From Planctomycetota bacterium (GTDB lineage Bacteria; Planctomycetota; SZUA-567; H5-PLA8), in NCBI GenBank assembly GCA_023150555.1, contig JAKLKQ010000033.1:5088-69087 (forward strand): 64,000 nucleotides of DNA, read 5' to 3'. The notes below the pieces were generated by a model. It saw only the letters and a list, made by a program, of their open reading frames with translations. It had not been told where the DNA came from and searched no databases. A program made the position numbers and the translations under genes. Shown here piece after piece: positions 2,889-63,118 of the stretch; the stretch's first letter is position 1; every line of letters begins with the position of its first letter.

Positions 2889-2921
2889 GCGTCTCCCGGA
2901 ACTGAAGAGAACCGATCGACC

Positions 2922-4610: not shown

Positions 4611-4670
4611 AGAAGAAGGCGCGGGACGAGCCGTCTAGTAGGCAGCCCCGGAAAACGGATCACGAGAGGA

Positions 4671-10664: not shown

Positions 10665-10700
10665 TGCCGCGGCCGCGGAACGGATGTGGAAGGAACTGCC

Positions 10701-10970: not shown

Positions 10971-11002
10971 AGACCTTTGCGGAAACGAATAGTATCTCCA
11001 TC

Positions 11003-18063: not shown

Positions 18064-18098
18064 ATCGAACGCGATTGGACCCGAAAAGGAGCCCGAGC

Positions 18099-38686: not shown

Positions 38687-38877
38687 CGTTCGCGTCGGGT
38701 CTCCGTGGAACGGCTCGACCAGATTACCCGCGGGCGTTGCACTTCCCAAGGGGCTTTGTGGGGGCGTACGTTGACAGGATTTCCCAGGGCCGTACGCTGG
38801 AGTAGTTCCATTCACCGAACCTGACCGCACGCACGGCCAATCCGCGCACCGTGCGTGAATGCAGAGGAGATTCCGAC

Positions 38878-46297: not shown

Positions 46298-46370
46298 GGC
46301 ATGGGCGCGCAACTGCGCGCGTGAACAAAGAATACCGTTTGCGGCGTTTCCTACAAGCGTGAGGCGGGCG

Positions 46371-48456: not shown

Positions 48457-49647
48457 TCAAGAAACGGCCAGGGTTTCGGCGCTGCTGCGCTTCGACTGGA
48501 TGCTGCGGCATGGCGGCTCATCGGGAAGTTCGCGCGGCGGGCCGCCGATCTTCGAGAGGTCGTAATCACGCGCCGTCTCGTAGAACGCGACGACGTTCTC
48601 GATCGAACAGTCGAAGCTCACCACGTTGGACGCGCGGAACATGTATCCGCCGTTGTAGGCGCAGCAGCGCATCAGGTAGTCGACCTCGCGCTTGACGTCC
48701 GCGACCGTCCCGAAAGGCAGCGTGCGCTGTACGCTGCCGCCGCCGTCGAGGGTGATCTTATCGCCGAAATCGCGTTTGATTCGCGCCGGGTCGACGCTTT
48801 CGGGCTGCAGCGGGTTGACTATGTTAAAGCCGACCTCGATCAGATCCGGGATGATCTCCGTGATGTTCCCGTCGCTGTGAAAGAAGAAGGTCACGTCCGG
48901 GTTGACCTCGCGCGTGCCGGCGATCAGGCGCTTCCAGAACTGCTTGTCCAGATTGCGCCAACTCTCGGGCGAGACCATCATGCGCTTCTGCATCGCCACG
49001 TCGCCCCAATAGCTGAACTGGTCGACGCCCGCCGCCGCACAGGGCCGCGTAACCAGCAGGCAGTACTGCAGGATGCGGTCTTGGAAGGCCTCCACCCATT
49101 CCGGATTCTCGACGTAGTCACACAGGAAGTTCTGCATTCCGCGCATGCGCCACGCCTGCTTGAAGGGATGCGCGCCGCTGCTTCCATGGACCCAATAGCC
49201 TTGCGCCTTGAGCAAGCGTACCTTTTCGGCGAGGTCCGGCGGCACGACAATGCGGTCGGCCTTCGGCCAGTCGAAGCTGTCGAGATCGTCGGTTTTGGCG
49301 AACGGCCCGCTGATCCACTCCAGGTACTTTCCGTTCTCCCCCACCCGTTCCACGACGCCCCAGCGGTCCTCGAAGGTACGCTCGTCGTGCAGGATCGTCC
49401 GCCCGATGTTGCCGAAAGGGCCGTACAGTTCACCGTTGATGCATTTCTCATACTCCGGAAAGAGTGTCTTGACGCCGGCCGAGCGCGAGAGGTCCGCATC
49501 GAGAATCATAGCCACCTCTTGCTCGCTGCCGACCTTGTAGTACGCCTTCGCCGCCTCTGTGACCTCGTCGCGCCAGCCCAGACTGATCGGGATGCGGTCG
49601 GGCATCTGGTGATTGAGGACGGCACGAATGCGTTCGCGCGGGGTCAT
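48457..49647 (-). CDS. Uroporphyrinogen decarboxylase (URO-D) family protein, MtaA/CmuA-like paralog
   Basis: MTPRERIRAVLNHQMPDRIPISLGW is the URO-D family N-terminal pattern. A similar paralog lies at 18099-19451. Confidence 0.7.
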   Translation of the reverse strand: MTPRERIRAVLNHQMPDRIPISLGWRDEVTEAAKAYYKVGSEQEVAMILDADLSRSAGVKTLFPEYEKCINGELYGPFGNIGRTILHDERTFEDRWGVVERVGENGKYLEWISGPFAKTDDLDSFDWPKADRIVVPPDLAEKVRLLKAQGYWVHGSSGAHPFKQAWRMRGMQNFLCDYVENPEWVEAFQDRILQYCLLVTRPCAAAGVDQFSYWGDVAMQKRMMVSPESWRNLDKQFWKRLIAGTREVNPDVTFFFHSDGNITEIIPDLIEVGFNIVNPLQPESVDPARIKRDFGDKITLDGGGSVQRTLPFGTVADVKREVDYLMRCCAYNGGYMFRASNVVSFDCSIENVVAFYETARDYDLSKIGGPPRELPDEPPCRSIQSKRSSAETLAVS

Positions 49648-49985
49648 GGATGGCTCCTTGCCGGGCCGGAAGAATCCATTTCTTTAATCTATGTGTATAT
49701 CCTAATACCCAGAATGTCACGTATCTACCGCTGCAATATTCTTGTCCGATCCTGCAACCTGGCCCAGGCAAAGGCACTAGGTGTGCCCTCCGGCTCGAAT
49801 ACGGCGCACCACTTTTGCTGAAATCCGGCCCGGGTGCCGCCACATATGGCCAGTGCAGCCAACCCGCAACACGCGAAAAAGAGTAGATTTCAGATATAAA
49901 GCTCGTTATATATACTTTCGTGCGCCCCTTGCCCTGTTAGGGCTCGGCGCGGGTATGCCTCTTCCTCCTGTCGGGAAGGCAGGCT

Positions 49986-51365
49986 ATGGAACGTTGGATC
50001 CCCGGCCTATTAGTGGTTCTCGCAACCGCGGCGCTGACGTCGTGGCTGCTGGCAAATCCCTCCGTACCCGTCGAACCGCGCGTACCCGCCAGCACCGTAG
50101 ACGAATCGCCTGCCGAGACTAAGGCGGGCGCAGCGTCCAGCCGGCTGATCCCAGGTTCCGGCACGCCTTCGTCCCATCCGGGCGCATGGACGTGTTTTCG
50201 CGGCGAGGAGCGCGACGGACTCGGCCACGACACCGTGCGCCTGTCGCGGCAGTGGCCGGCCGATGGTCCTCGCGAGCGCTGGCGCCTGGACGCCGGCGAA
50301 GGCTACGCCGGCGCGGCGGTCCGGGCCGGCCGTGTCTATCTGCACGACTACGACCAAGCTACACAGGTAGAAGCCATCCGATGCCTCTCCTTTGACGACG
50401 GCCGCGAGATCTGGCGCTTCGCCTACCCCAACGTGATCAAACGCAACCACGGCATGTCTCGCACCGTGCCCGCCGTCGGCGAGAAGCACCTGGTCGCCTT
50501 CGGGCCGAAGTGCCATGTCACCTGCCTGGATCCGGCGACCGGCGCGCTGCGCTGGCAGCTGGATCTCGTACGGGACTTTGGCTCCAAGGTTCCGCCGTGG
50601 TACGCGGGGCAGTGCCCGCTGCTGGAAGATGGCCGGGTGATCCTGGCACCCTGCGGAGACGACCTGCTGATCGCGGTGAATGCCGACGACGGCAAGGTTC
50701 TTTGGCGCACGCCCAACCGTCTTGCCTGGAAGATGACCCACGCGAGCGTCGTGCCCATGGCGCTCGCCGGACGCCGAACGTACCTGTATGCAGGCAGCGG
50801 CGGCATTGCGTGCGTCGACGCCGCAGGCGGCACGCTGCTGTGGACAACGGACCTCTGGAAGATCAGCATCGCGACGATCGCCACCCCGGTTCCAGCCGGC
50901 GATGGCCGCATCTTCGTGGCCGGGGGCTACAACGCCGGCGCGGCGATGCTGCAGGTCGAGCCCGACGGTGCGGGCTACGGCGTGCGCGAGGCCTGGCGCC
51001 TGGCGCCCGAAGTCTTCGGCGCGACGCAGCAGACGCCCATCCTCTTCGAGAACCATCTTTACGGTATCCGGCCCGACGGCGAACTGGCCTGCCTGGACCT
51101 CGACGGAAAGCTGCGCTGGACGAGTGGCCCGCAGCACCGCTTCGGGCTGGGGCCGCTCCTGATCGCCGGCGGTCTGCTCTACGCGATGAATGACGACGGA
51201 TTGCTCTCGATGTGCGAGGCCGTGCCGGACGCCTTCCGTCTGCTCGCGCAGGCCAAGGTGCTCTACGGGCACGACGCATGGGGTCCGATGGCCCTGGCAG
51301 GCGGGCGCTTGATCGCGCGTGATCTTACCCAACTCGTTTGCCTCGACGTCGCGGAGAAGCCCTGA
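49986..51365 (+). CDS. Membrane-anchored PQQ-like beta-propeller repeat protein (BamB-like family)
   Basis: N-terminal TM (IPGLLVVLATAALTSWLLA). WTCFRGEERDG and repeated A..A.DG..LW motifs are typical of PQQ_2/PQQ_3 propellers. Confidence 0.7.
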   Translation: MERWIPGLLVVLATAALTSWLLANPSVPVEPRVPASTVDESPAETKAGAASSRLIPGSGTPSSHPGAWTCFRGEERDGLGHDTVRLSRQWPADGPRERWRLDAGEGYAGAAVRAGRVYLHDYDQATQVEAIRCLSFDDGREIWRFAYPNVIKRNHGMSRTVPAVGEKHLVAFGPKCHVTCLDPATGALRWQLDLVRDFGSKVPPWYAGQCPLLEDGRVILAPCGDDLLIAVNADDGKVLWRTPNRLAWKMTHASVVPMALAGRRTYLYAGSGGIACVDAAGGTLLWTTDLWKISIATIATPVPAGDGRIFVAGGYNAGAAMLQVEPDGAGYGVREAWRLAPEVFGATQQTPILFENHLYGIRPDGELACLDLDGKLRWTSGPQHRFGLGPLLIAGGLLYAMNDDGLLSMCEAVPDAFRLLAQAKVLYGHDAWGPMALAGGRLIARDLTQLVCLDVAEKP

Positions 51366-51379
51366 GGCGAGGCCACACG

Positions 51380-52414
51380 ATGGCGGCGGAAGAGATTCCT
51401 AACGAGGCCCCAAAGTCTCTGCACGCGGGAAACCTGGCCATCGGCCTGGGCGCTGCTGCGATGGTGGCGCTCGCGCTTTTCCTGGTCTGGCGCGAAGGCC
51501 GCAGCGGGCGCCAAGCCGCGGAACTGGGCCCGGCCTTCCAGTACGACCTTGACGCGCTCAAAGAAGTGGATCCCGCGTTGATCGCCTACCACGAGACGGG
51601 CCGCGTCGAGAGCGGCTTGGAGCACGTGCGTGGCCTGGCGCTGGCGCCCGACGGAATGCTCTGGATCGCCGGTGACCGCGCGGTGAAGCGCTTCGACGCA
51701 CAGGGTCATCCCGGCGGCGAGATCGCTTTCGACGAAGACGTGCGTTGCGTCGCAGTGGACGGTGATCGGCTCTTGGTTGGCCTTCCGCGCCGGCTGATCA
51801 TCCTCGATACGAATGGCGTCGAATTGGCCCGTGGTCCCGACTTGGGGTCCGACGCGCTGCTGAGCGCCGTCGCGGTCTCGGGCGAGACGATCTACCTCGC
51901 CGATTCGGGACGCCGCCTGGTCCTTTGCTGCGATGCGTCGGGGAAGATCCTTGCGGAGATCGGCGCGCGCGACGCGGAGCGCGGCGTGCCCGGCCTGATC
52001 GTGCCCAGCCCCTACCTGGACGTGGCGGCCGGCGACGGCGAGGTCGTGTACGTCACCAACCCTGGACGCCATCAGGTGGAATCGTACACGCGCTCGGGAG
52101 ATCTAATCGGCAGTTGGGGCAAGCCAGCCATGCGCGTAGAAGGCTTCTCCGGCTGCTGCAACCCCGTCGCTTTCGCGCCCCTGCCCGGCGGGCGCTGCGT
52201 CGTCAGCGAGAAAGGACTCGCGCGCGTGAAGGTCATGGATGACGAAGGCAAGCTGCTCAGCCTCGTCGCCGCGCCGTCCGGTTTCGCGGAGAACGCCTTC
52301 GGCATCGACCTGGCCGCCGACGCGGCCGGGCGCGTCTACGTCCTCGACACAGGCACGCGCGCGGTGCGCATCTTCGAGCCGAACGCCGCGGTCGGCGGGA
52401 GCCCCGCGCCATGA
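51380..52414 (+). CDS. Membrane-anchored NHL-repeat / six-bladed beta-propeller protein
   Basis: N-terminal TM (LAIGLGAAAMVALALFLVW). Repeats such as GLALAPDGMLWIAGDRAVKRFD and IYLADSGRRLV are NHL-like. Confidence 0.55.
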   Translation: MAAEEIPNEAPKSLHAGNLAIGLGAAAMVALALFLVWREGRSGRQAAELGPAFQYDLDALKEVDPALIAYHETGRVESGLEHVRGLALAPDGMLWIAGDRAVKRFDAQGHPGGEIAFDEDVRCVAVDGDRLLVGLPRRLIILDTNGVELARGPDLGSDALLSAVAVSGETIYLADSGRRLVLCCDASGKILAEIGARDAERGVPGLIVPSPYLDVAAGDGEVVYVTNPGRHQVESYTRSGDLIGSWGKPAMRVEGFSGCCNPVAFAPLPGGRCVVSEKGLARVKVMDDEGKLLSLVAAPSGFAENAFGIDLAADAAGRVYVLDTGTRAVRIFEPNAAVGGSPAP

Positions 52415-52644
52415 CGAATGAACCTTGGCAAACGAACCGCCGCGGGTTCCTGCACAGCGCGGTGCGCTTGGGCGTATTCGGGGCGTTGGGCTGGTTGTTC
52501 ACGCACTTGGCCGGACGCGCGCTGCGGAATCCCGAAGCCTGCTCGGGGCAGGGCCTCTGCGGGCGCTGCGGCCTGGCGCGGAATTGCGCGTTGCCCCGCG
52601 CCATCCTGCACCGCGCCGACCAAAAGGAGCGTCTCCGTGGCTGA
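52411..52644 (+). CDS. Small Tat-signal Cys-rich protein (77 aa), hypothetical
   Basis: Twin-arginine motif TNRRGFLHSAVRLGVFGALGWLF. Four Cys in CSGQGLCGRCGLARNC. SD GGGAG upstream. Start overlaps the upstream stop, and its 3' end overlaps the next gene by 8 bp. Confidence 0.4.
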   Translation: MTNEPWQTNRRGFLHSAVRLGVFGALGWLFTHLAGRALRNPEACSGQGLCGRCGLARNCALPRAILHRADQKERLRG

Positions 52645-53239
52645 CGCGCACCAGCACGCACCAGAGTCGCCCGCCTCCGGCGGCGCCGGGCCCTCGCGCC
52701 GCGACTTCCTGCGCCAGAGCCTGCGCGGCGCGGCGTTCCTGGCCCTGGGCGGCGCAGCAGGATTTCTGGCCTCGCGAACCGCGCGCGCCGGAAACATCTG
52801 GCAGATCGATCCCTACCTATGCGTGCAGTGCGGCAAGTGTGCCACGCATTGCGTCTTGAACCCGTCGGCCGTGAAGTGCGTGCACGCCTACGAGATGTGC
52901 GGGTACTGCGAACTCTGCACGGCCTTCTTCGAGCCCGATCCCAACGGACTGAACACCGGCGCCGAGAACCAGCTCTGCCCGACCGGCGCCATCGTGCGCA
53001 CCTTCGTCGAGGATCCCTACTTCGAGTATCGCATCACCGAGGACCTCTGCATCGGCTGCGCGAAATGCGTGAAGGGCTGCACCGCCTTCGGCAACGGTTC
53101 CATGCACCTGCAAGTCCGCCACGACCGCTGCCTCAACTGCAACGAATGTTCCATCGCAGTGGCCTGCCCCGCGGGCGCCTTCAAGCGCGTGCCCGCGAAC
53201 CGCCCGTACCTGATGAAGGGCAAAAGGAGCGAGCCGTGA
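52637..53239 (+). CDS. Tat-exported tetra-[4Fe-4S] ferredoxin, NapG/MauM-like
   Basis: Tat signal SRRDFLRQSLRGAAFLALGGAAG. Four Cys clusters: CVQCGKCATHC, CGYCELC..CPTGAI, CIGCAKCVKGC, CLNCNECSIAVACP. SD AAGGAG lies 8 nt upstream of GTG 52637. Confidence 0.7.
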   Translation: MADAHQHAPESPASGGAGPSRRDFLRQSLRGAAFLALGGAAGFLASRTARAGNIWQIDPYLCVQCGKCATHCVLNPSAVKCVHAYEMCGYCELCTAFFEPDPNGLNTGAENQLCPTGAIVRTFVEDPYFEYRITEDLCIGCAKCVKGCTAFGNGSMHLQVRHDRCLNCNECSIAVACPAGAFKRVPANRPYLMKGKRSEP

Positions 53240-54549
53240 GACGGACGCGGGGGCTCCTCCTGCTGGCCGCGCTGGCCGCCGCATGTACCGGGGCGTTCGG
53301 GGAAGAGCGCTTCCCGCCGCCGGAGTTCACCGCCACCCAGTACGCTTTGCCCGCTCCCACCCGCCCGGAAGCACGCGACGGAATGCGTGCCGGCGTGGAT
53401 GTCGCGGTGCTGTTCGGCGCGCTTTGCCTTTCCGCATGGCTGGTCTTGCGCAAGCGTTCGCGCCGCGGCGTCTATGCGCTGATGGTCTTCTCCATCGCCT
53501 ACTTCGGGTTCTACCGCGAAGGGTGCGTATGCCCCATCGGCGGTATCCAGAACGTCTCGCAGGCCGCGTGGGCCGCGGACTTCGTTCTGCCGCTCTCGGC
53601 GCTGGCCTTCTTCTTCCTGCCTCTGGTCTTCACCCTGATCTTCGGGCGCGTCTACTGCGCATCGGTCTGTCCGCACGGCGCGTTGCAGGACGCAGTCGTA
53701 TTGAAACCCGTACAGGTGCCGGCCTGGCTCGATCACGCGCTGGGGCTGCTCGCCTACCTCTACCTCGGCCTGGCGGTGCTATGGGCCGTAACGGGCGCGG
53801 CGTACGTCATCTGCGAGTACGATCCCTTCGTGCCGCTCTTCCGCATGACCGGCAGCGTCAACATGCTCACGCTCGGCGCCGTCTTCCTGCTGGCCGGCGC
53901 CTTCGTGGGTCGGCCGTACTGCCGCTACCTCTGCCCGTACGGCGCGATCCTGCGCCTGCTCTCGCCGCTCTCGCGTTGGAAGGTCTCGATCTACCCCGAC
54001 CGCTGCATCGACTGCCGGCTCTGCGACACGTCCTGTCCCTACGGTGCCATCCGTCCGACCACGCCGGTAGGCCCCGCGCCGCCGCGCGCGCCCGACCGCA
54101 GGCGGCTCGCCATAACGATGGTACTGCTGCCGCTGATCGTGGCGCTTTGCGCCTTGCTGGGTTCCGGTCTGTCCGGACCTTTGGCGCGCATGCATCCTGC
54201 GGTGCAGCGTGCGGAGGCCGTCGCGCGCGGCGCCGAGAGCGTTGCGGATCTCACGAAGGACGACGCCGACCGCCTGCTGGCCTTCCGGCAGAACGCGGCA
54301 ACGGCGGCGGCTCTTCCGGAGGAAGCGCGCGACGTGATGGAACGCTTCCATCGCACCGCACCCTGGTTCGGCGCGTGGGTCGGCCTGGTGATCGCCGTGA
54401 AGTTGATCGCCTTGACGCTGCGACGCCGCCGCGACGAATACCTCGCCGACCGTGGCGCCTGCGTCGCCTGCGCGCGCTGCTTCGACTACTGCCCCGGCGA
54501 GAAGGGGCTGCTCGATCCGGAGATCGCCGCAAGGGCACGGCGGCCATGA
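53236..54549 (+). CDS. Integral-membrane polyferredoxin, NapH/MauN/CcoG-like
   Basis: TM helices with two CxxxCP motifs (YCASVCPHGALQD, YCRYLCPYGAI). C-terminal CIDCRLCDTSCPYGAI and CVACARCFDYCP are [4Fe-4S] motifs. SD AAGGAG lies upstream of GTG 53236. Confidence 0.7.
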   Translation: MRRTRGLLLLAALAAACTGAFGEERFPPPEFTATQYALPAPTRPEARDGMRAGVDVAVLFGALCLSAWLVLRKRSRRGVYALMVFSIAYFGFYREGCVCPIGGIQNVSQAAWAADFVLPLSALAFFFLPLVFTLIFGRVYCASVCPHGALQDAVVLKPVQVPAWLDHALGLLAYLYLGLAVLWAVTGAAYVICEYDPFVPLFRMTGSVNMLTLGAVFLLAGAFVGRPYCRYLCPYGAILRLLSPLSRWKVSIYPDRCIDCRLCDTSCPYGAIRPTTPVGPAPPRAPDRRRLAITMVLLPLIVALCALLGSGLSGPLARMHPAVQRAEAVARGAESVADLTKDDADRLLAFRQNAATAAALPEEARDVMERFHRTAPWFGAWVGLVIAVKLIALTLRRRRDEYLADRGACVACARCFDYCPGEKGLLDPEIAARARRP

Positions 54550-56312
54550 TGCGCCCTGTTCCCCCCTCCGACCCGCAGGCCCTGCGCCGGCACCAGGCGC
54601 GGTACCTGCTGGCCAGCCGCAGCGCGTTGGTGGCCGGCGTTTTCACGCTGCTGGTGGCCGCGCTGCTGGCGCTGAACTTCGCGCAGCGGCAGAGCACCGA
54701 TCCGCTCGAGCACCCCGAACTGGCGGCGCTGAAAGTACGGCTGGCGGCGGAGCCGCGCAGCAGCGCGTTGAAAACGCAGATCCGGCAACTCGACCAGGAA
54801 CTGCGCGCCGAGTACTTCCGCTACCAGTCGCGCGCGCATGCGGGCGCATGGCTGCTGCTCGGCGGCGCCGTCGTCTTCCTGGTCTCCATTTTCGGAATGA
54901 CCACGCTGCACCCTTCTGCGCCGCAGCCCCTTCGGGGGCTGGAACGCGACGCGCGGCAGTGGAGCGAACCGCGGCGCGCGCGCTGGGCGGTGGGCCTGCT
55001 CGGAGCAGCCGTTATCGGCGGCCTCGCACTGATTGCGGTGCTCGTCAGCGCACCGGCGCTGCCCGATAGCTCCGATGCAGCGGCTGGCGCCGTCGCCGCC
55101 TCGGGCCAGGCTTCGCCCGAAGCCCCGATTGACGAAACCGCCATCGCACGCAATTGGCCGCGCTTCCGCGGACCCGACGGCAGCGGCCGCGCCGCTGACG
55201 GCGGTATCCCGGCGACGTGGGACGTCTCGAGCGGCGAGAACGTGCTTTGGAAGTCGCCGATCCCGCTGCCCGGGGTAGGCTCGCCCATCGTCTGGGAGAA
55301 CCTCGTCGTCGTGACCGGCGCGGAAAAGGATCAACGCGCAGTGTACGGTCTCGACGCGGCGACGGGCAAGCTGCTCTGGACGGGCCGCGGGGAACGCATC
55401 GCCGAAAGCCCCGCCGAAGCGCCCGAGGTCATGGAAGACACGGGCTTCGCCGCGCCCACGCCCGCCACCGACGGCCAGCGCGTCTACGCGATCTTCGCCA
55501 ACGGCGACCTGATCGCCTTCACGCTGAAAGGCCAGCGCGTCTGGGCGCGCGCGCTGGGCATGCCGGCCAACGGGTACGGACACGCCGCCTCGCTGCTGGT
55601 TTGGAAGGACCTTCTGCTTGTGCCCTGGGACCAGTCGGAGAACGGCAGACTGTTCGCACTCGATGCAGCCACGGGCAAAACGGTCTGGGAGGAGCCGCGC
55701 GAAGTTCACTGTTCGTGGACGACGCCCGTCGTCGCGAAGCTTGCCGGCGGCGATGCACTAATCACCGCCGCCGCGCCCAAGGTCATTGCCTACGGCCTGC
55801 CCAAGGGCGAGGAAACATGGTCGGTCGAAGGCCTCGAAGGCGAACTGGGGTCGTCGCCTGTCTGGGACGGCCAGCACGTATTTGCGGTCGGCACCGATTC
55901 GAACCTGCTTGCCATCGAGCCCGGCGCGCACGGAAGCGCACGGGTGGCATGGAAGACCGACAAGGACCTCCCCGACATCACCAGCCCGCTGTCCGACGGC
56001 GAGCGGCTCTGGCTGCTCACCACGCAGGGCCGGGTGACCTGCCTTGCGGCGAAAGACGGAACGGAATTTTACGGCCAGGAACTCGACGCCAGCTTCTTCG
56101 CCTCGCCGACGCTGGTTGGCGAACGCGTTCTGCTCATATCGGCCTCGGGCAAGGCCTTCTGGCTCGCGTCCGGAGCCGAGTACCGCCTGCTGGGCACCGC
56201 CGAATTCGGCGAGAAAGTTCATGCTTCGCCGGCCTTGGCGGGCGGGCGCCTGTTCGTGCGCGGCGAACGCCATCTCTTCTGCATCGCACCACGCGGAGGG
56301 CCCAAGCCGTGA
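54546..56312 (+). CDS. Membrane-anchored PQQ-like beta-propeller repeat protein, paralog of 49986-51365
   Basis: N-terminal TM (ALVAGVFTLLVAALLAL) and a second helix. NWPRFRGPDGSGRA plus repeated PQQ-like blades (LWK, GLDAATGKLLW, ALDAATGKTVW). ATG overlaps the upstream stop. Confidence 0.7.
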   Translation: MMRPVPPSDPQALRRHQARYLLASRSALVAGVFTLLVAALLALNFAQRQSTDPLEHPELAALKVRLAAEPRSSALKTQIRQLDQELRAEYFRYQSRAHAGAWLLLGGAVVFLVSIFGMTTLHPSAPQPLRGLERDARQWSEPRRARWAVGLLGAAVIGGLALIAVLVSAPALPDSSDAAAGAVAASGQASPEAPIDETAIARNWPRFRGPDGSGRAADGGIPATWDVSSGENVLWKSPIPLPGVGSPIVWENLVVVTGAEKDQRAVYGLDAATGKLLWTGRGERIAESPAEAPEVMEDTGFAAPTPATDGQRVYAIFANGDLIAFTLKGQRVWARALGMPANGYGHAASLLVWKDLLLVPWDQSENGRLFALDAATGKTVWEEPREVHCSWTTPVVAKLAGGDALITAAAPKVIAYGLPKGEETWSVEGLEGELGSSPVWDGQHVFAVGTDSNLLAIEPGAHGSARVAWKTDKDLPDITSPLSDGERLWLLTTQGRVTCLAAKDGTEFYGQELDASFFASPTLVGERVLLISASGKAFWLASGAEYRLLGTAEFGEKVHASPALAGGRLFVRGERHLFCIAPRGGPKP

Positions 56313-58684
56313 ACGCCCCCGCATCGCTCCCGATAGATCCCGCGCCAGCTGCGCCGCGCGCCGACCTCGCACCAATCGAGACAATCGTCGGCAAACTGGG
56401 CCGCACGCGCGAGCAGCTCATCCCGATCCTCCAGGCGATCCAGGCGCATTACCGGTACCTGCCGAAAGAGGCCCTGGAGCGCGTCTGCGCACTGACTGAG
56501 ATCACACCCGCGCAACTCGTCAGCGTCGCTACCTTCTATAAGCAGTTCCGCCACACGCCCTGCGGCAAGCACCTGATCCGCGTCTGCCACGGCACGGCTT
56601 GCCACGTGTCCGGAGCAGGCGCGATCAGCGAAGCTTTCGAGAAGCACCTGCACCTGCCGCCCGGTCAGAGCACCGACGCGGAAGGCGCCTTCACGCTCGA
56701 AAAGGTCGCCTGCCTGGGCTGCTGCAGCCTCGCGCCCGCTGTGCAGATCGACGATGGCGTCTACGGAAACCTCACACCGGGCGCGGTGCCGTACGTGCTC
56801 GAGGAAGTGCGCCGCGCGGAGAAGCAGGGGTCGACGAACGGCGACCGCCCGTCGCGCAACGGCGACGGCGCATTCGGCGAGATCCGCATCGCGCTGGACT
56901 CCTGCTGCCTGGCGCGCGGCGCCGACAAGGTCTTTGCTTCGCTGCAGCACGTCGCCGAACGCTTCCGCCTTCCCGCGCGCGTCAAACCGGTGGGCTGCAC
57001 CGGCCTGAGCTGCCACGCGCCGCTGATCGAAATCGTGCGACCCGGCCTGCCCAGGATCCTCTACGCGGACATAAAGCCGGAGGACGCCGAAGCCATCGCG
57101 CTGCGGCACTTCGAGCCGCGCTCCTGGTGCAACCGCCTGCGCTCGGCCGCGACGCGGGCTTTGGACGCGCTCGTCGACGATACCTTGCCTGCGCGGAATG
57201 CTCTGCCGGCCGAGGCCGCTCCGGTACGCGAATTCCTAGGGCGGCAGCTGCGCTTGGCCACCGAGCACAGCGGCGAGATGAATCCGCTGGACCTCGCCGA
57301 GTACCAGGCGCGCGGCGGCTTCCAGGCGCTGGAACGCGCTATGAAGGAACGCACGCCCGACGAACTGATCGCCGAGATCACGAAGAGCGGCCTGCGCGGG
57401 CGAGGCGGCGCAGGGTACTCCACAGGGACGAAATGGCGCCAGGTGCGCGACGCCTCCGGCTTGACCAAGTACGTGATCTGCAACGGCGACGAAGGCGATC
57501 CCGGCGCCTTCATGGACCGCATGATCCTGGAGTCGTATCCCTTCCGCGTGATCGAGGGCCTCGCCGCCAGTGCGTGGGCCGTCGGCGCGAGGGAAGGCAT
57601 CTTCTACATCCGCGAGGAGTATCCGCTGGCCGTGCAGCGCATCGAACAGGCAATCGCGCGCTGCGAAGACGCCGGCATCCTGGGGCGAACGGAGAGCGAC
57701 AGCGCGCCATGCTTCCGCGTCGTGCGCGGGGCCGGCGCGTTCGTCTGCGGCGAAGAGACCGCGCTGATCGCCTCGCTGAAAGGCGAGCGCGGCCGCCCGC
57801 GTCTGCGACCGCCCTATCCCAGTGAGTGCGGCTTCCGCGGTTGCCCGACGCTGGTGAACAACGTCGAAACGCTCGCGCTGGTGTCATGGATCCTGCGCAA
57901 TGGCGCCGAATCCTTCACAAAGCTCGGCACCCCGCGCAGCGCAGGCACCAAGGTCTTCGCGCTGGCCGGCAAGGTCCGCCGCAGCGGACTTGTGGAAGTA
58001 CCGATGGGCATCACCCTGCGCGAGATCGTGGAGAAACTGGGCGGCGGCGTTCCCAACGGCAAGCGCTTGAAGGCCGTGCAGATCGGCGGGCCCAGCGGAG
58101 GTTGCGTGCCGGCGTCGCTGGCCGACACGCCCATCGATTACGAGGCGCTGGTCGATGCCGGCGCGATCATGGGTTCCGGCGGCATGGTGGTACTCGACGA
58201 AGACGACTGCATGGTCGACATCGCACGCTACTTCCTGCGCTTTGCCAACGACGAATGCTGCGGGCGCTGCTCCTTCGGGCGCATCGGCAGCCGCCGCTTG
58301 CTAGACATCCTCGAACGAATCTGCACGGGCCAGGGCCGTCCCGGCGACCTGGACGACATGCAGCGACTGGGCCGGGCGATGAAAGTGGCCTGCCTTTGCG
58401 GCTTAGGTAAGACCGCGCCCAACCCGGTGCTCTCCACGCTGCGGCATTTCCGCGAGGAATACGAGGCTCATCTGGCGGGCCGCTGCCCGGCCGGACGCTG
58501 CAAGGAGTTGATCCGCTACGAGATCGGGGAGAGCTGCATCGGCTGCACGCTCTGCGCGCAGCACTGCCCCGCCGACTGCATTCCCATGGCGCCGTATCAG
58601 GTCCACACCATCGACAGCGCGAAGTGCACGCGCTGCGACGCATGCCGGCAGGTCTGCCCGGTGGACGCCGTGAAGGTGAGGTGA
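56309..58684 (+). CDS. Fused NuoE-like [2Fe-2S] plus NuoF-like (NAD(P)H/FMN/[4Fe-4S]) plus C-terminal 2x[4Fe-4S] ferredoxin subunit; Bfu-family (HydB/HndC/StnAB-like) flavoprotein
   Basis: NuoE motifs: CHGTACHVSGA...CLGCCSLAP. NuoF motifs: GLRGRGGAGYSTGTKW, VICNGDEGDPGAFMDR, CGRCSFGR. C-terminal CIGCTLCAQHCP and CTRCDACRQVCP. GTG overlaps the upstream stop (GTGA). SD GGAGGG lies 8 nt upstream. Confidence 0.85.
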   Translation: MNAPASLPIDPAPAAPRADLAPIETIVGKLGRTREQLIPILQAIQAHYRYLPKEALERVCALTEITPAQLVSVATFYKQFRHTPCGKHLIRVCHGTACHVSGAGAISEAFEKHLHLPPGQSTDAEGAFTLEKVACLGCCSLAPAVQIDDGVYGNLTPGAVPYVLEEVRRAEKQGSTNGDRPSRNGDGAFGEIRIALDSCCLARGADKVFASLQHVAERFRLPARVKPVGCTGLSCHAPLIEIVRPGLPRILYADIKPEDAEAIALRHFEPRSWCNRLRSAATRALDALVDDTLPARNALPAEAAPVREFLGRQLRLATEHSGEMNPLDLAEYQARGGFQALERAMKERTPDELIAEITKSGLRGRGGAGYSTGTKWRQVRDASGLTKYVICNGDEGDPGAFMDRMILESYPFRVIEGLAASAWAVGAREGIFYIREEYPLAVQRIEQAIARCEDAGILGRTESDSAPCFRVVRGAGAFVCGEETALIASLKGERGRPRLRPPYPSECGFRGCPTLVNNVETLALVSWILRNGAESFTKLGTPRSAGTKVFALAGKVRRSGLVEVPMGITLREIVEKLGGGVPNGKRLKAVQIGGPSGGCVPASLADTPIDYEALVDAGAIMGSGGMVVLDEDDCMVDIARYFLRFANDECCGRCSFGRIGSRRLLDILERICTGQGRPGDLDDMQRLGRAMKVACLCGLGKTAPNPVLSTLRHFREEYEAHLAGRCPAGRCKELIRYEIGESCIGCTLCAQHCPADCIPMAPYQVHTIDSAKCTRCDACRQVCPVDAVKVR

Positions 58685-58687
58685 ACG

Positions 58688-60313
58688 ATGCCGCGAGTGA
58701 CCATCGACGGCCGTAGCGTTGACGTCGAACCCGGCACAACCATTCTTGATGCCGCGCGGAAACTCGGCATCGAGATCCCCACGCTCTGCCACCTCGCCGA
58801 TCACGACCCCGAGACCAGCTGCATGGCCTGCGTTGTGCGCGTCAACGGCAGCGCGAGCCTGACGCCGTCCTGCGCGCGCATAGCGGAAGAAGGCATGGCC
58901 GTCGAGAGCGAGGTCGAGGATATCCGCGCGATCCGCCGCATGGCGTTCGAACTCTTGCTCAGCGACCACATCGGCGACTGCATCGCGCCGTGCCACCACA
59001 CCTGCCCCGCGCACATGGAGATCCCGCTGATGCTGCGGCAGGTCAGCGAGGGCCAGATGCGCGAAGCCCTGCGCACGATCAAGAAGGACATCGCGCTGCC
59101 CGCCGTGCTCGGACGCGTCTGTCCGGAGGTCTGCGAACGCACCTGCCGCCGCACGTTCTACGACCACCCGGCTTCGATCTGCATGGTCAAGCGCATCGTG
59201 GCCGACGAAGACTTCGCCAGCGGCGATCCCTACGTGCCCGAGCGCGCGCCCGCCAGCGGCAAGCGCGTCGCCGTCGTGGGAAGCGGACCAGCGGGCCTCG
59301 CCGCCGCCTATTACCTCGCGCAGGATGGCCACGAGGTCGTCATCTACGATGCGAGAGACGAACCCGGCGGCGCGCTGCGTTACAATGTTCCGGAGGAGAA
59401 GCTGCCACGCGGCGTCCTGAACGCGGAAATCGGGATCATCCGCCGCCTGGGCGTGACGTTCCGGATGAACACGAGGCTGGGCAGCGACCTGACCTTGGCG
59501 GATCTGCGCGGCGATTTCGACGCCGTCTTTCTCGGCACCGGCGAACTGGAACCCGGCAAGGCGTACGAGTTGGGCTTGCACGCGCCCGGTACCCGGCTTC
59601 CGGCGAACCTCTCCACGCTCGAGACCGCCGCGCCCGGCGTCTTCGCGGGCGGCGACCTCGTGCGTCGGCGCAGGCTGGCGGTACGGTCCATTGCCGACGG
59701 AAAAATCGCTGCGCATGGCATTTCGCGGTACCTGCGCGGATTGAAACCCGAAGGCGAATCGCACGGCTGCGCCTCGCGCATGGGCCAAGTGGACCGCGAG
59801 ACCATCGATCTGCTGATGACTGGCAAGGTGAGCTCCGAGGACCGCCACGTGCCCCAGACCGGGCCATCCGAAGGCTTCACGCCGACGGAAGCACGGGTCG
59901 AGTCCATGCGCTGCCTGCATTGCGACTGCCGTGCGAAAGACAACTGCGGCCTGCGGGACTTTTCCGAATCCTACGAGGCCGCCCAAGGCCGCTTCAAAGG
60001 CAGCCGCCGCGTGCTGGTGCCGCTCCAGGAAGGCAGCCGGCTGATCTTCGAACCGGGCAAGTGCATCGCCTGCGGGCTGTGCGTGCAGATCACATGCAAG
60101 GGCGGCGAGCCCCTGGGCCTCACGTTTATCGGGCGCGGCTTCGACATGCGCATCGGCGTGCCGTTCGACCGGCCGATTGCGGATGGCCTAACCGTCACTG
60201 CCGACGCCTGCGTGAACGCGTGCCCTACCGGCGCGATCGCCTTCGCCGATTCCGAATTGCTCCGGCAGCCCTGGGAACCGCGCGTGGCCGTGGAGGACCG
60301 CGTCCATGACTGA
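58688..60313 (+). CDS. NuoG-N-like [2Fe-2S] ferredoxin domain fused to GltD/NfnB-like NAD(P)H-FAD oxidoreductase, plus C-terminal ferredoxin (StnC-like)
   Basis: MPRVTIDGRSVDVEPGTTILDAARKLGIEIPTLCH...SCMACVV is 2Fe-2S. The GltD-like motifs are CPAHMEIPLMLRQVSEGQ..AL, CPEVCERTC, GKRVAVVGSGPAGLAAAYYLAQDGHEVVIYD and GGDLV. C-terminal CIACGLCVQ. SD AAGGTGAGGTGA lies upstream. Confidence 0.85.
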   Translation: MPRVTIDGRSVDVEPGTTILDAARKLGIEIPTLCHLADHDPETSCMACVVRVNGSASLTPSCARIAEEGMAVESEVEDIRAIRRMAFELLLSDHIGDCIAPCHHTCPAHMEIPLMLRQVSEGQMREALRTIKKDIALPAVLGRVCPEVCERTCRRTFYDHPASICMVKRIVADEDFASGDPYVPERAPASGKRVAVVGSGPAGLAAAYYLAQDGHEVVIYDARDEPGGALRYNVPEEKLPRGVLNAEIGIIRRLGVTFRMNTRLGSDLTLADLRGDFDAVFLGTGELEPGKAYELGLHAPGTRLPANLSTLETAAPGVFAGGDLVRRRRLAVRSIADGKIAAHGISRYLRGLKPEGESHGCASRMGQVDRETIDLLMTGKVSSEDRHVPQTGPSEGFTPTEARVESMRCLHCDCRAKDNCGLRDFSESYEAAQGRFKGSRRVLVPLQEGSRLIFEPGKCIACGLCVQITCKGGEPLGLTFIGRGFDMRIGVPFDRPIADGLTVTADACVNACPTGAIAFADSELLRQPWEPRVAVEDRVHD

Positions 60314-61442
60314 ACGTCATCGTCACTACTTCGACTACGCAGCCTCCTGCCCGCCGTGGAAGGAGGCCCTCGATGCCGCCGACCGCTGCGCGCTGGAATT
60401 CCCGGGCAATCCGTCCGCGCAGCACGAAGCAGGACGGTGCGCGCAGGAAACGTGGGAGACCCTGGCGCAGCGATTCACGGCGCTCTGCAAATTCACAAAC
60501 GGGCGATTGGTAGCCTGCTCCGGCGGCACCGAGGCGAACAACCTGGCGATTCGCGGCGTCATGAACCGGTATCCGGCCGGGCGCCTGCTGCTCGCCGCCG
60601 ACGCCCATCCCTCCGCATGGTTCGCGACCAAAGAGTACGCAAAGCGCGTAGACATTCTGCCGCTCGAGAAAAACGGAGAGATCTCACCGCTGAAACTATC
60701 CAAGATGATCCGGAAAGACACGCTGCTCGTCAGCTGCATGCACGCGTCAAACGAGACCGGATTCGTACAAAACATCGCCGTGCTGGGCGCCGCATGCGCG
60801 GAGCGGAAGGTCCTCTTTCACGTCGATGGCGTACAGGCCGTCGGACACCTTCCGCTGGACCTGAAAATCGTTCCTGTCAATTTGTATGCCTTTTCGGTGC
60901 ACAAATTCGGTGGCCCGCGCGGCTTCGGGGGCCTGTTCGTTCGGTTCCCGGACCTTTCGCCGCAGATCCTTGGCGGCGACCAGCAGGACGGCCTGCGCGC
61001 CGGCACCGAGAACCTTCCCGGACTCGCGGGGTCCGTAGCGGCCCTGGAACAGTGTCTGGCGCGGATTGAGACGGAAATCCCGCGCCAGCGCGAGTTGGCG
61101 GCCGAACTGGTCGCCTCGGTTCAAGCATCTTTCCCATCGGTCCTCGTGAACTCGGACTCGGCGCACGGCCTGCCGGGCCTAGTGAGCCTCTCCTTTCCCG
61201 GCATCGACGCGCAGGTCTTGATCGCGGATCTGGATCTGCAGGGTTTCGCCGTCGCTGCGGGCGGCGCCTGCCATGCGCACCGCCGCGAACCGTCGCGCGC
61301 GATCCTGGCCCTGGGCCGCAGCAAGCGGGAGGCACAAGGCACGATCCGCATCAGCATGGGGCACGCCACGCGTCGGGACGAGGTCCTCGCGCTCGCCGAG
61401 GTGCTGGTCCAGGCGGCGGCACGCCAGGCGGCCTTGGCATGA
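60306..61442 (+). CDS. Cysteine desulfurase-like class V aminotransferase (NifS/IscS family)
   Basis: SGGTEANNLAIRG, the PLP-Lys motif SVHKFGGPRGFGGLFV, and AAGGACHA. ATG overlaps the upstream stop. Confidence 0.8.
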   Translation: MTERHRHYFDYAASCPPWKEALDAADRCALEFPGNPSAQHEAGRCAQETWETLAQRFTALCKFTNGRLVACSGGTEANNLAIRGVMNRYPAGRLLLAADAHPSAWFATKEYAKRVDILPLEKNGEISPLKLSKMIRKDTLLVSCMHASNETGFVQNIAVLGAACAERKVLFHVDGVQAVGHLPLDLKIVPVNLYAFSVHKFGGPRGFGGLFVRFPDLSPQILGGDQQDGLRAGTENLPGLAGSVAALEQCLARIETEIPRQRELAAELVASVQASFPSVLVNSDSAHGLPGLVSLSFPGIDAQVLIADLDLQGFAVAAGGACHAHRREPSRAILALGRSKREAQGTIRISMGHATRRDEVLALAEVLVQAAARQAALA

Positions 61443-62326
61443 AGCCCGCGTTCTCGATCCAACCTCCTGCGGTCGCCGCCCTTCCGGCGCCCGCGGCCGT
61501 GGCCACGGCGAAGACCGATGCTGCCCTGCTCGCACAGGCCCCGCCGGCCTTGAAGGAATGCCTGCTGCGCATGATCGAGACCGGCGCGCCGCACCTGATT
61601 CTCTCCGGCAGCGACCCGATTGATCCGCACGGCTGCTGCCCCGAAAGCCTGGTCGGCGCGGCAAACCGCCTGGTCGAGGCCGGCGTCCTCGGCCGGTGGC
61701 GAAGGCCCGGGCCCATCGGCGCCTGCCCCGTCACCGTCTACGCCTTTCGCGGCGAGATCTCGATAGTGGACCGGCAGTCGGTGTTTACCGTGGACGTGAC
61801 CTTGCGGCGTTCCCTCCTGCCGGCATTGAAGGGCGAACGCCGCCGAGCGAGGGTCCTCATCGCCCTGCGCGCCGGGTTACTCGCCTTCGTTATCGCCACG
61901 CTGGTGGTGATCGCCTTCGGCGCCAGCGTCCAATCGACGGGCGGCAACGGCGCCGCGGCCCTGACCGCCGGACTCCCCCGCGAGAACATGACGGTCCTGG
62001 TGCTCTTCCGTACATCGGCTCGCTGCCGATTCTGCGAGCACATGGACGTCTTCGCGCGTGAAGGTCTGTCCGCTCAATTCAATGACAACCTGCGCGACGG
62101 ACGCATCGCCTACCGCGAGATCGATTTCGACCGCACGGAATACCGCGACTTGCGCGGCGCCTTCGGGCTCGCGTCCACGACGCTGGCGCTCTTCGAGATT
62201 CGCGGCGGCCAGGCGGTGCGCTGGAAGGTCCTGGAGGAGGCCTGGCAACTGACGGAGGACCGCGAGGCGTTTCTCGAGATGACCGCGCGCGAAGTCGCGG
62301 CCTTTAGGGAGGCGCCCCATGAATGA
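61439..62326 (+). CDS. Membrane-anchored thioredoxin-like protein with CxxC (CRFC) motif
   Basis: Central TM helix (VLIALRAGLLAFVIATLVVIAFGA). C-terminal VLVLFRTSARCRFCEHMD...YREIDFD is a thioredoxin-fold pattern. ATG overlaps the upstream stop. Confidence 0.45.
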   Translation: MKPAFSIQPPAVAALPAPAAVATAKTDAALLAQAPPALKECLLRMIETGAPHLILSGSDPIDPHGCCPESLVGAANRLVEAGVLGRWRRPGPIGACPVTVYAFRGEISIVDRQSVFTVDVTLRRSLLPALKGERRRARVLIALRAGLLAFVIATLVVIAFGASVQSTGGNGAAALTAGLPRENMTVLVLFRTSARCRFCEHMDVFAREGLSAQFNDNLRDGRIAYREIDFDRTEYRDLRGAFGLASTTLALFEIRGGQAVRWKVLEEAWQLTEDREAFLEMTAREVAAFREAPHE

Positions 62327-63008
62327 GGCGCTTGCACTATCGTTGAGCGCCGCCGGGCTGGGACTCCTGACCGCGGTACATCCCTGCCCCTTGGCAGGAC
62401 ACCTCGGCGCGCTCGCCGCTCTGAGCGGCTGGTCGGGGTGCCCGAGGCGCGTCTGGTTCGCAGGCCTGGCGCTCGCAGCGGGATTCGCCGTAGCGTACGC
62501 TGCGCTGGGCATCCTGCTGAGTTGGGGGCTCGCCTCGGCGCCCTACACGTCCGAAGTTCTGCGATCGTACCTAACCCGCCTGCTGGGCCCGTTCCTGGTG
62601 GTCGCGGGCATGCTGATGGCAGGATTGCTCGGCGGAAGCGGAGCACCAGCGCTGCGCGAGCGGGTATCGGCGTGGCTTGACCGGCGCGCATGGGGAAGTT
62701 GGATCGCCTTCCCCGCCGGCATGCTGCTCGCGCTGAGTTTCTGCCCTGCTTCCGCGGCGCTCTTCTTCGGCGTACTGCTGCCGCTGGCGCTGACAAAGCA
62801 GATGCCGGTTATCCTGCCGGTCGCTTACGGCGCGGGCGTGGCCTTGCCGCTGGCGGCCGTAGCATTCTTCGTCGCGTTCGGAACGCAGTGGCTAGGGCGG
62901 AAATCGGAACGCGAGGCGCGGACCCGAACGGTGCGCCTGGCGGCGGGCACCGTTTTGATCCTGGTGGGCATCGCCCACGCATTGCAGCATGTGTACGGCA
63001 TTCTCTAG
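62319..63008 (+). CDS. CcdA/DsbD-family transmembrane thiol-disulfide electron transporter (DsbD_2)
   Basis: A polytopic protein with two membrane-embedded Cys in helix-start positions (VHPCPLAG and LSFCPASAALFFG), the DsbD/CcdA hallmark. Confidence 0.6.
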   Translation: MNEALALSLSAAGLGLLTAVHPCPLAGHLGALAALSGWSGCPRRVWFAGLALAAGFAVAYAALGILLSWGLASAPYTSEVLRSYLTRLLGPFLVVAGMLMAGLLGGSGAPALRERVSAWLDRRAWGSWIAFPAGMLLALSFCPASAALFFGVLLPLALTKQMPVILPVAYGAGVALPLAAVAFFVAFGTQWLGRKSEREARTRTVRLAAGTVLILVGIAHALQHVYGIL

Positions 63009-63022
63009 CAACCTGCACCGGA

Positions 63023-63118
63023 TGGCGGGAGTGCATGGGAATCGAACCCACCCAACGCCCTTGCGGACGTCGCTACGGCTTTGAAGGCCGCGGCCGTCAC
63101 CAGACGACCTCCACTCCC
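63023..63118 (-). tRNA. selC: tRNA-Sec (selC), anticodon UCA, 96 nt
   Basis: The reverse complement reads GGGAGTGG A GGTCGTCTGGTGACGGCCGC GGCCTTCAAAGCC ... long variable arm ... GGGTTCGATTCCC ... GCACTCCC G CCA. The anticodon loop CUUCAAA matches E. coli selC. The D-arm TCGTCTGGTGA is nearly identical to E. coli selC. A long variable arm, an extended acceptor stem and a CCA end are all present. Confidence 0.8.

Follow-up and report, generated by a model that had tools for sequence, protein, structure and literature searches.

Bfu-type electron-bifurcating enzymes have so far been treated as soluble or ion-pump-linked complexes of strict anaerobes, with a defined third substrate, for example H2, formate or NADPH; membrane-bound forms, Mbh-Bfu and Nuo-Bfu, have also been predicted (Schut et al. 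2022, PMC9304861). In Bfu enzymes the B1 [4Fe–4S] cluster lies beside the flavin mononucleotide (FMN) and is part of a B1–FMN–C1 flavobicluster (PMC11829005). In the Sporomusa-type enzyme StnABC, residues 102–565 of StnC make up a GltD-like unit for flavin adenine dinucleotide (FAD) and NADPH, and residues 683–1172 an FdhF-like domain, which has two clusters off the pathway and through which the tetramer forms (PMC10482914). Here, a 64,000-nucleotide stretch from a Planctomycetota bacterium (GenBank assembly GCA_023150555.1, contig JAKLKQ010000033.1, positions 5,088–69,087 of the forward strand; termed the window, and numbered from its first letter) was analyzed for two adjacent genes, F and G, whose products are related to StnABC. 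A sequence-only reading of the same window had named the span 56309–60313 as a candidate StnABC-like enzyme; the coordinates of both open reading frames were correct, but F and G turned out to be only the last two genes of an eight-gene operon, A-B-X-C-D-E-F-G, at 49986–60313. We propose, with a probability of roughly 0.6, that F and G form the cytoplasmic NADH-oxidizing head of a membrane-spanning redox machine encoded by this operon.

Domain architecture of F and G

The two genes and their domains are as follows.

56309..58684, + strand: gene F, BfuC–BfuB (NuoE–NuoF) fusion of 791 amino acids (Pfam domains; GTG start overlapping the upstream stop)
56375..56809, + strand: NuoE/BfuC thioredoxin-like [2Fe–2S] domain of F, amino acids 23–167 (PF01257, E 3e-47)
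56879..57178, + strand: B5-site thioredoxin-like domain at the N terminus of the BfuB part of F (aligns with residues 2–90 of 9bov_B/8oh5_B)
57278..58471, + strand: NuoF core of F, amino acids 324–721 (TIGR01959, Pfam)
58256..58279, + strand: atypical B1/N3 motif CCGRCSFG of F, amino acids 650–657 (orthologue alignment)
58529..58675, + strand: C-terminal 2x[4Fe–4S] ferredoxin-like domain (B3/B4) of F, amino acids 741–789 (PF14697/PF00037)
58688..60313, + strand: gene G, truncated BfuA (StnC/NfnA-like) of 541 amino acids (Pfam, PDB matches)
59264..59734, + strand: FAD-binding domain of G, amino acids 193–349 (motif conservation)
59912..60235, + strand: C-terminal NuoG-like iron–sulfur (FeS) region of G (aligns with StnC residues 558–671)

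F is 100% identical to a protein of a metagenome-assembled genome named 'NAD(P)H-dependent oxidoreductase subunit E [Planctomycetes bacterium]'. The fusion of NuoE and NuoF that had been predicted at 56309–58684 was borne out, PF01257, the Nuo51 FMN domain PF01512 (residues 357–525, E 5e-42) and the NuoF 4Fe–4S region PF10589 (residues 637–721, E 6e-29) all being found in one 791-residue chain. In the NuoE part, the [2Fe–2S] ligands C93, C98, C135 and C139 are conserved at a frequency of at least 0.97 among 65 orthologues. Residues 191–790 align end to end with NfnB (9bov_B) and StnB (8oh5_B), and this match takes in the second thioredoxin-like module that had also been predicted (residues ~191–290), in which the B5-site cysteines are C199, C200, C230 and C235. 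The NuoF core holds the FMN/NADH site (GRGGAG and CNGDEGDPGAF), an SLBB domain (PF10531) and a four-helix bundle with the B1/N3 cluster, and the C-terminal ferredoxin motifs noted earlier correspond to a Fer4 dicluster at residues 741–789 whose eight cysteines are all conserved in the orthologue alignment. This B3/B4 domain is the Bfu signature domain and has been proposed as the ferredoxin site. By motif, the C1, B5, B1, B3 and B4 cluster sites could be assigned in F, along with an H721/C726/C731 metal-site motif. These alignments show F to be a fused BfuC–BfuB protein with a predicted FMN/NADH site and motifs for the full Bfu cluster set, that of B1 being irregular.

The top PDB matches of F were 9bov_B (635 bits), 8oh5_B (619 bits) and 9n5u_B (608 bits), with complex I Nqo1 at ~330 bits. 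Those of G came from the same three complexes, namely 9bov_A (E 5e-102), 8oh5_C (E 2e-99) and 9n5u_A, with E-values ranging to 1e-92, so the proposed StnABC/Bfu homology holds for both proteins, far above complex I. Against the NuoF equivalog TIGR01959, F scored 420 bits, below the cut-off of 559, and matches to NuoE models were likewise below their cut-offs. All GltD-type NCBIfam models scored far below cut-off with G, their matches ending at residue 286–305. The window contains no nuo genes, and there is no GltB gene near G. Judged by these scores and gene contents, F–G is neither complex I NuoEF nor GltD proper.

The B1/N3 site of F departs from the family pattern. The GDEGDPGAF motif was read correctly, but CGRCSFGR, listed beside it as a NuoF motif, is an incomplete N3/B1 motif: in the sequence ECCGRCSFG the third canonical cysteine is replaced by glycine, with an extra cysteine at position −1 (C650); SCGKCTFC(R) stands at this site in 64 of the 65 orthologues. 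A sequencing error is excluded as the cause, since P0122 and P0123, 88% identical, carry the same motif. The B5 site was also seen to vary. It is shifted in the window's lineage (SCC...GCTGLSC versus SCC...GCVGMC), and 14 of the 65 orthologues (loci L004–L083) have serine at the equivalents of both residue 199 and residue 234, two of the four B5 cysteines being gone together. This joint loss recalls the variability between [2Fe–2S] and Zn reported at this site in NfnB.

The domains of G are ordered as a [2Fe–2S] domain, two GltD-type [4Fe–4S] sites, the halves of a FAD domain and two C-terminal [4Fe–4S] sites. The [2Fe–2S] domain predicted earlier was recovered as PF13510 (residues 4–75), with its ligands C34, C45, C48 and C62 kept, and is followed by a GltD/DPD-type (Fer4_20) 4Fe–4S domain, PF14691, at residues 99–177. 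Ligands of the GltD-type clusters are also kept (H94, C98, C102 and C106; C145, C149 and C153), and Lys168, equivalent to the unusual StnC ligand of the flavin-proximal [4Fe–4S] cluster, K170, is invariant in 52 sequences. In the FAD domain, the fingerprint G198xG200xxG203, D221 and G227G228 are invariant, and Asp323 of the GD motif, which binds the ribityl chain of FAD, is conserved in just 35 of 73 sequences. Flavin is therefore probably bound by G, judged by the fingerprint, and its role may be relaxed, judged by Asp323. The C-terminal motifs are C409-x2-C-x-C-x5-C420 and C459xxCxxC plus C512P, all with invariant cysteines. An AlphaFold2 model of G built from 52 homologues (pLDDT 84.6, pTM 0.84) matched 9bov_A with a query-normalized TM-score of 0.85 in Foldseek. 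G is shown by these alignments to be a BfuA of the Stn/Nfn lineage with motifs for the [2Fe–2S] and four [4Fe–4S] sites and with the FAD fold retained.

The missing NAD(P)H-binding domain of G

The GltD/NfnB-like core had been described as binding both NAD(P)H and FAD. Its FAD half is present, but its NAD(P)H-binding Rossmann domain, about 150–170 residues long (StnC ~289–457), is absent from G. Using HMMER, the match to StnC fell into two blocks, residues 4–287 to StnC 6–288 and residues 310–517 to StnC 458–671, with the junction at the following feature.

59540..59575, + strand: deletion scar in G, amino acids 285–296, G-ELEPGK-AYELG (HMMER versus StnC; alignment A2)

Pyr_redox_2 was detected in residues 193–225 only, and G contains no second GxGxxG/A motif. 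The Foldseek alignment with 9bov_A extended over 678 columns for the 541-residue query, the pattern expected of an insertion on the target side. The sequence of G stops at the counterpart of StnC residue 671, the FdhF-like domain being gone, and has no molybdopterin Pfam match.

The short form of G is widespread. The best 120 database matches are 517–563 amino acids long and mostly from Planctomycetota. When 1.8 billion cluster representatives were searched exhaustively, over 110 of the best 150 matches were 505–560 amino acids long with a single continuous match, ~15 were 630–720 amino acids long and a few 1080–1270. Among these long relatives, 675–709-residue forms have a full Pyr_redox_2, and the longest have a StnC-like molybdopterin domain (Pfam). 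Within the family the short form predominates and is conserved, and this conserved length excludes an assembly artefact as the cause of the missing domain.

Rare variants of the operon encode a long G. In alignment A2, the window's G, P0048 and P0050 have a clean gap of ~150 columns at the NAD(P)H domain; the canonical NADPH motifs GGGNTAMD and GGGNEALD are kept in P0263 and P0270, and the motif is degenerate in P0297 (locus L089) and P0312 (AAGSPGTD and GSGPMALD). Locus L087 has the order PQQ_2, NHL, Fer4, Fer4_5, NuoE, NuoF and a G of 709 residues (10001–12130) with the NADPH motif intact. Locus L089 reads PQQ_2, NuoEF, a G of 675 residues (4288–6315) and a GT4 glycosyltransferase, and the short contig of locus L086 (4.6 kb) carries P0270, a G of 675 residues (1073–3100), followed by GT4. 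As the NAD(P)H domain is intact, decayed or deleted among variants of one operon, the NADPH site is dispensable and the operon's conserved function does not need NADP(H). P0248, a further protein from outside the window, joins a short G to a second GltD-like NAD(P)H/FAD unit, itself complete.

These results bear directly on the transhydrogenase-like role that had been suggested for the pair, in which a soluble StnABC-like enzyme would couple NADH and reduced ferredoxin to the reduction of NADP+. Much about the locus would suit such an enzyme: F and G are both most similar to StnABC/NfnABC subunits, the Bfu cluster set of F is complete, the NADPH motif of G is still intact in some orthologous operons (P0263, P0270), and, as had been noted, no hydrogenase or formate dehydrogenase gene lies nearby, none being found anywhere in the 64-kb window. 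Against this, the NAD(P)H-binding domain is missing from the StnC-like subunit G, both here and in the greater part of its family, and no other gene of the operon supplies one; F and G are also tied to partners in the membrane and periplasm. We regard this role as highly improbable; judged by the sequence of G, the F–G complex is not a transhydrogenase. The F–G module is best regarded as descended from a Stn-like transhydrogenase rather than as one at present. Genes of Planctomycetota–Verrucomicrobiota–Chlamydiota (PVC) genomes that are annotated as 'NADPH-dependent glutamate synthase beta subunit-like', Nfn or Stn should accordingly not be counted as transhydrogenases.

Membrane and periplasmic partners and the proposed electron path

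The genes upstream of F were mapped using third-position G+C (the window has a G+C content of ~67%) and junction sequences.

49889..49916, + strand: sigma-70-like promoter match ~70 nucleotides upstream of gene A (weak consensus match)
49986..51365, + strand: gene A, PQQ_2/BamB-like beta-propeller (PF13360, E 2e-28)
51380..52414, + strand: gene B, NHL-repeat beta-propeller (start ATG 51380 or TTG 51338)
52411..52642, + strand: gene X, small open reading frame of 77 amino acids (junction sequence; missed by a standard open reading frame scan)
52637..53239, + strand: gene C, NapG-like polyferredoxin with a twin-arginine signal (GTG start, ribosome-binding site AAAAGGAG)
53236..54549, + strand: gene D, NapH/NosR-like polytopic membrane FeS protein (PF12801 Fer4_5, E 8e-17)
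54546..56312, + strand: gene E, membrane-anchored PQQ_2 beta-propeller (stop overlaps the start of F, GTGA)

A scan of one genome per species gave 80 related loci, in which the window proteins were then sought by tblastn. Restricting the count to the 45 loci with at least 9 kb upstream, genes A-B-C-D-E-F-G were colinear and on the same strand in 41, across several phyla, and the same gene order is annotated in Anaerobaca lacustris. This synteny supports the earlier expectation that F and G work for the remaining operon genes. Hosts included Pirellulales, Planctomycetaceae, Thermoguttaceae, Phycisphaerae, Sedimentisphaerales and Poribacteria, as well as Armatimonadota (Chthonomonadales, Fimbriimonadaceae), Verrucomicrobiota/Lentisphaeria, Aminicenantes and Calditrichota. 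Many host lineages (Pirellulales, Planctomycetaceae, Chthonomonadales, Fimbriimonadaceae, Poribacteria) are aerobic heterotrophs. F and G are genetically locked to the NapH-like D, the NapG-like C, the small four-cysteine (Cys4) protein X of twin-arginine translocation (Tat) type and two or three periplasmic propellers.

Two of the propellers, A and B, have signal anchors at their N termini, or Tat signals in some orthologues. Gene A, with a hydrophobic signal anchor, is predicted to be periplasmic, and H155, S158, R159, T160, Q209, C210, H252, Y315, M321 and Q348 are conserved in 44 orthologues. Gene B starts with a membrane anchor, for which some orthologues have a Tat or lipoprotein signal, and carries an invariant vicinal-cysteine motif, GF-GCCNP (C273 and C274; amino acids 270–276, ~52190–52210, + strand), followed by EKGL-RVK; this motif could be a redox-active or metal-binding site. 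Gene E is predicted to begin with a transmembrane (TM) helix, TM1, a conserved charged helix of ~55 amino acids, TM2, a PxP loop and TM3, after which comes its PQQ_2 propeller. Matches of the propellers to solved structures were limited to BamB, designed propellers and TRIM NHL domains, and were uninformative on function.

Gene X combines a twin-arginine motif, one hydrophobic helix and a basic stretch with the pattern C-x5-C-x2-C-x5-C-x-LP. The gene overlaps both of its neighbors, with its start on the stop of B and its stop on the GTG start of C. X was found at this position in 39 of 44 loci, and in two of these, L026 and L054, it is joined to the N terminus of C. Gene C has the twin-arginine signal SRRDFLRQ and 17 cysteines in four CxxCxxC(xxxC)-type motifs, with no match to the NapG model. 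Gene D contains two CX3CP motifs (C133/C137 and C221/C225) and two CxxCxxCxxxCP motifs (C249.. and C401..) that are predicted to be cytoplasmic, with conserved C89, C91 and C185 predicted on the face opposite the 4Fe–4S motifs. The motifs of D are conserved among orthologues; its match to the NapH/MauN model TIGR02163 (E 1e-12) is below the family cut-off, and no homologue was found in the PDB. By their sequences, the C–D pair is 'NapGH-like' only.

Gene fusions tie F and G to the membrane. Locus L085 lacks the propeller gene E, and its F has 927 residues (7221–10004), with an N-terminal extension of TM helix, charged helix, TM helix and proline-rich segment like the N terminus of E. In L087, where gene E is again absent and NuoE and NuoF are unfused, an E-type TM module stands on a separate NuoE of 298 residues (7309–8205). 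A profile of the N-terminal module of E detects both extensions at E 1e-5 to 1e-6. In P0384, G continues through a hydrophobic segment into a PQQ_2 propeller. Together with the start and stop codons, which overlap throughout the operon, these fusions argue for a single membrane-bound complex.

Based on these features, NADH would reduce the FMN of F, and reduced ferredoxin might feed in or exchange electrons at the B3/B4 domain. Electrons would then pass along the FeS chain of G to the cytoplasmic 4Fe–4S/CX3CP face of D, be carried over the membrane to X and C and finally reach the propellers A, B and E. The propellers would use them for some reduction in the periplasm, or to maintain a cofactor or enzyme of that compartment in its reduced state. 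The membrane anchor of F and G would be the N-terminal module of E. G would take the place on D that the cytoplasmic FeS protein NapF holds on NapH. NapH contacts NapF via its first CX3CP motif, and also contacts periplasmic NapG (PMC5928378), a precedent that supports the G–D–C relay. F–G may act by confurcation of NADH and ferredoxin or as a plain NADH dehydrogenase.

Several points weigh against this proposal. The propellers give generic BamB, PQQ_2 and NHL matches only. D scores 48 and 41 bits with the NapH models, against cut-offs of 213 and 234, and its topology is derived from hydrophobicity and charge only. The homology of the fused E-type membrane modules is weak (12–17 bits), and the suggested G–D contact is drawn from gene order and fusions alone. 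The irregular B1 motif of the window's lineage also counts here. A full Bfu cluster set would be unexpected if the acceptor were of high potential, and the conserved FAD fold and Lys168 ligand suggest that the flavin end of G may still do chemistry outside this model.

In a different arrangement, the FAD of G would be the business end, an exposed flavin that reduces a two-electron acceptor at the membrane face, either a quinone or the CX3CP pairs of D; in the CX3CP version this would start a thiol–disulfide relay to X, the GCCNP motif of B and the cysteines of A and E. It would account for the invariant GxGxxG, D221, G227G228 and Lys168 ligand of the flavin-proximal cluster and for the conserved cysteines in X, B, A and E, and the FAD fold does belong to the pyridine-nucleotide disulfide oxidoreductase superfamily. 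Whether CX3CP motifs act as disulfides or as clusters is unsettled (PMC5928378). We consider this arrangement unlikely in either version, as conservation of D323 in just 35 of 73 sequences suggests a relaxed constraint on the flavin and C, a classical Tat-exported polyferredoxin, points to FeS rather than thiol transfer.

The retention of every Bfu-specific element in F (C1, B1, the H/C/C metal site and B3/B4) is best explained by bifurcation or confurcation in use, and could also mean that electrons flow in the reverse direction. The propellers would then oxidize a low-potential periplasmic donor and pass electrons through C, X and D to G, with bifurcation at the FMN of F to NAD+ and ferredoxin; the Bfu enzyme would be coupled to the membrane, and its third substrate would be external. 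Enzymes of the Bfu family work reversibly, and types bound to the membrane have been predicted (PMC9304861). Reverse flow nevertheless appears quite unlikely: no catalytic site at which H2, formate or a different low-potential donor could react is recognizable in the operon. For the many host lineages that are aerobic heterotrophs, it is also hard to name a donor in the periplasm with a potential near −400 mV.

The surroundings of the operon raise one more possibility. An extra PQQ_2 gene with a signal peptide lies directly downstream in 27 of 64 loci. In the flanks of L001, L002, L084, L085, L086 and L089, recurrent neighbors were a MacB/FtsX-type ABC transporter with its ATPase, a GT4 glycosyltransferase and very large multi-PQQ_2 proteins; such envelope-type neighbors hint at a link of the operon to the cell envelope. 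Much as NosR has been proposed to do for NosZ, the operon might serve maintenance or maturation: from time to time it would provide the low-potential electrons with which a periplasmic propeller enzyme that bears a cofactor, or a component of the envelope, is assembled, activated or repaired. The resemblance of the NapH/NosR-like and NapG-like pair to accessory modules of periplasmic enzymes, the envelope-related neighbors (MacB-type ABC transporter, GT4 glycosyltransferase and further PQQ_2 proteins) and the presence of the operon in aerobes and anaerobes alike would all agree with this. A 1330-residue multi-cluster NADH dehydrogenase would be a heavy investment for such a task, however, and none of the genes conserved with the operon is recognizable as one for a target enzyme or for cofactor biosynthesis, making the maintenance role improbable.

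Returning to the NADH-oxidizing head, a more specific form of that proposal is that the operon is a quinone-independent machine for exporting low-potential electrons, in which a Bfu-type NADH/ferredoxin dehydrogenase sits on a NapH-like protein and passes electrons through a Tat-exported Cys4 mini-protein and a polyferredoxin to periplasmic propeller enzymes that perform a new reductive reaction. Such a machine would be widespread in Planctomycetota, Armatimonadota, Poribacteria and Verrucomicrobiota, aerobic lineages included, with its transhydrogenase ancestor traceable through the intact, decayed and deleted NADPH domains. This whole account is tentative, and we put it somewhat short of an even chance.

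Around the operon, the + strand from 49986 to 63008 is densely packed with overlapping genes, and the following features flank it.

44297–46312, − strand: SelB
48457–49647, − strand: URO-D-like gene, divergent, upstream of the operon
60306–63008, + strand: NifS-like, ArsF-like and ArsG-like genes (gene map)
63023–63118, − strand: tRNA-Sec (Rfam)

The promoter match upstream of gene A is the sole sigma-70-like one on the + strand between 49500 and 64000 (2 found versus 1.1 expected). The tRNA-Sec gene was the only match in an Rfam scan of the window, with no riboswitch or regulatory RNA upstream of the operon. As SelB and tRNA-Sec flank the operon, a selenoprotein was considered and rejected, no in-frame TGA being found at a conserved cysteine in the window or in the 80 loci. 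No napA, nosZ, rdhA or mauAB gene was found near the operon, nor a CxxCH heme motif in any operon protein. Downstream, a NifS/IscS-like cysteine desulfurase overlaps the stop of G and is followed by a membrane-anchored thioredoxin-like protein with CRFC (weak ArsF-family match) and an ArsG/LysE-like permease; all three genes overlap, as in a single transcript, and this extension is specific to the window's lineage. They were rejected as part of the operon core, since they are translationally coupled in the window yet occur in at most one of the 80 loci. A URO-D-like gene lies near the operon in just four loci, with one G–URO-D fusion (P0252). The window holds a second URO-D-like gene at 18075–19451 and a second class-V aminotransferase at 37475–38830 (− strand).

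Comparison with known systems

Literature searches returned no published description of the eight-gene operon, nor of a NapGH-like or propeller-coupled Bfu enzyme. With F and G, a very common lineage derived from Stn/Nfn has dropped its third-substrate site and become tied to a NapH/NapG-like relay and propellers. The lineage spans hundreds of genomes from several phyla, many of them expected to be aerobic. If the proposal is true, it would provide a new route for cytoplasmic NADH/ferredoxin electrons to the periplasm without quinones and a dedicated partner for the enigmatic cytoplasmic FeS face of NapH-like proteins, and the series of intact, decayed and deleted NADPH domains would be natural material on the re-use of bifurcating modules.

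The domain definitions of BfuB, BfuC and minimal BfuA given for the Bfu family (PMC9304861) all apply to F and G. StnABC of Sporomusa ovata (8OH5) and NfnABC (Nfn-Bfu) of Caldicellulosiruptor saccharolyticus (9BOV) and Thermococcus sibiricus (9N5U) provide the best sequence matches for both proteins and the best fold matches for G. Like StnB and NfnB, F has an N-terminal thioredoxin-like domain, the FMN/NADH core, the H/C/C metal-site motif and the C-terminal 2x[4Fe–4S] domain; like StnC, G has the [2Fe–2S] domain, GltD-type clusters with a lysine ligand, the FAD fold and NuoG-like clusters. Unlike in Stn, the counterparts of StnA and StnB are fused in one chain, F, and unlike StnC, G lacks the NADPH Rossmann domain and the FdhF-like tetramerization domain. 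The B1 cluster motif of the window's lineage, CCxxCxxG, also differs from Stn and Nfn. Whereas Stn is a three-gene soluble unit, F and G lie within an eight-gene operon with membrane and periplasmic partners.

With GltD and NfnB (the large subunit of NfnSL), G shares the Fer4_20 cluster domain and the FAD dinucleotide fold; it differs from them in lacking both an NADPH domain and a GltB or NfnA(S) partner, and in its extra N-terminal [2Fe–2S] and C-terminal FeS domains. As in Mbh-Bfu and Nuo-Bfu, the BfuABC genes of the operon are embedded among genes for membrane proteins, but the partner here is a NapH/NapG-like FeS relay with periplasmic propellers rather than the ion-pumping Mbh or Nuo. 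The combination of NapH/NapG with propellers is not listed in PMC9304861, where the surveyed clades are mostly from anaerobes.

Like NapGH(F), NosR, RdhC/PceC and MauMN, D has a membrane module with two CX3CP and two 4Fe–4S motifs, and like NapG, C is a Tat-exported polyferredoxin. D departs from NapH and NosR in its roughly seven predicted helices, its split second FeS motif, the absence of an FMN-binding domain and scores far below cut-offs. In contrast to NapGH, the likely electron source is a dedicated NADH dehydrogenase and not the quinol pool, and the operon as a whole may represent a new type of system.

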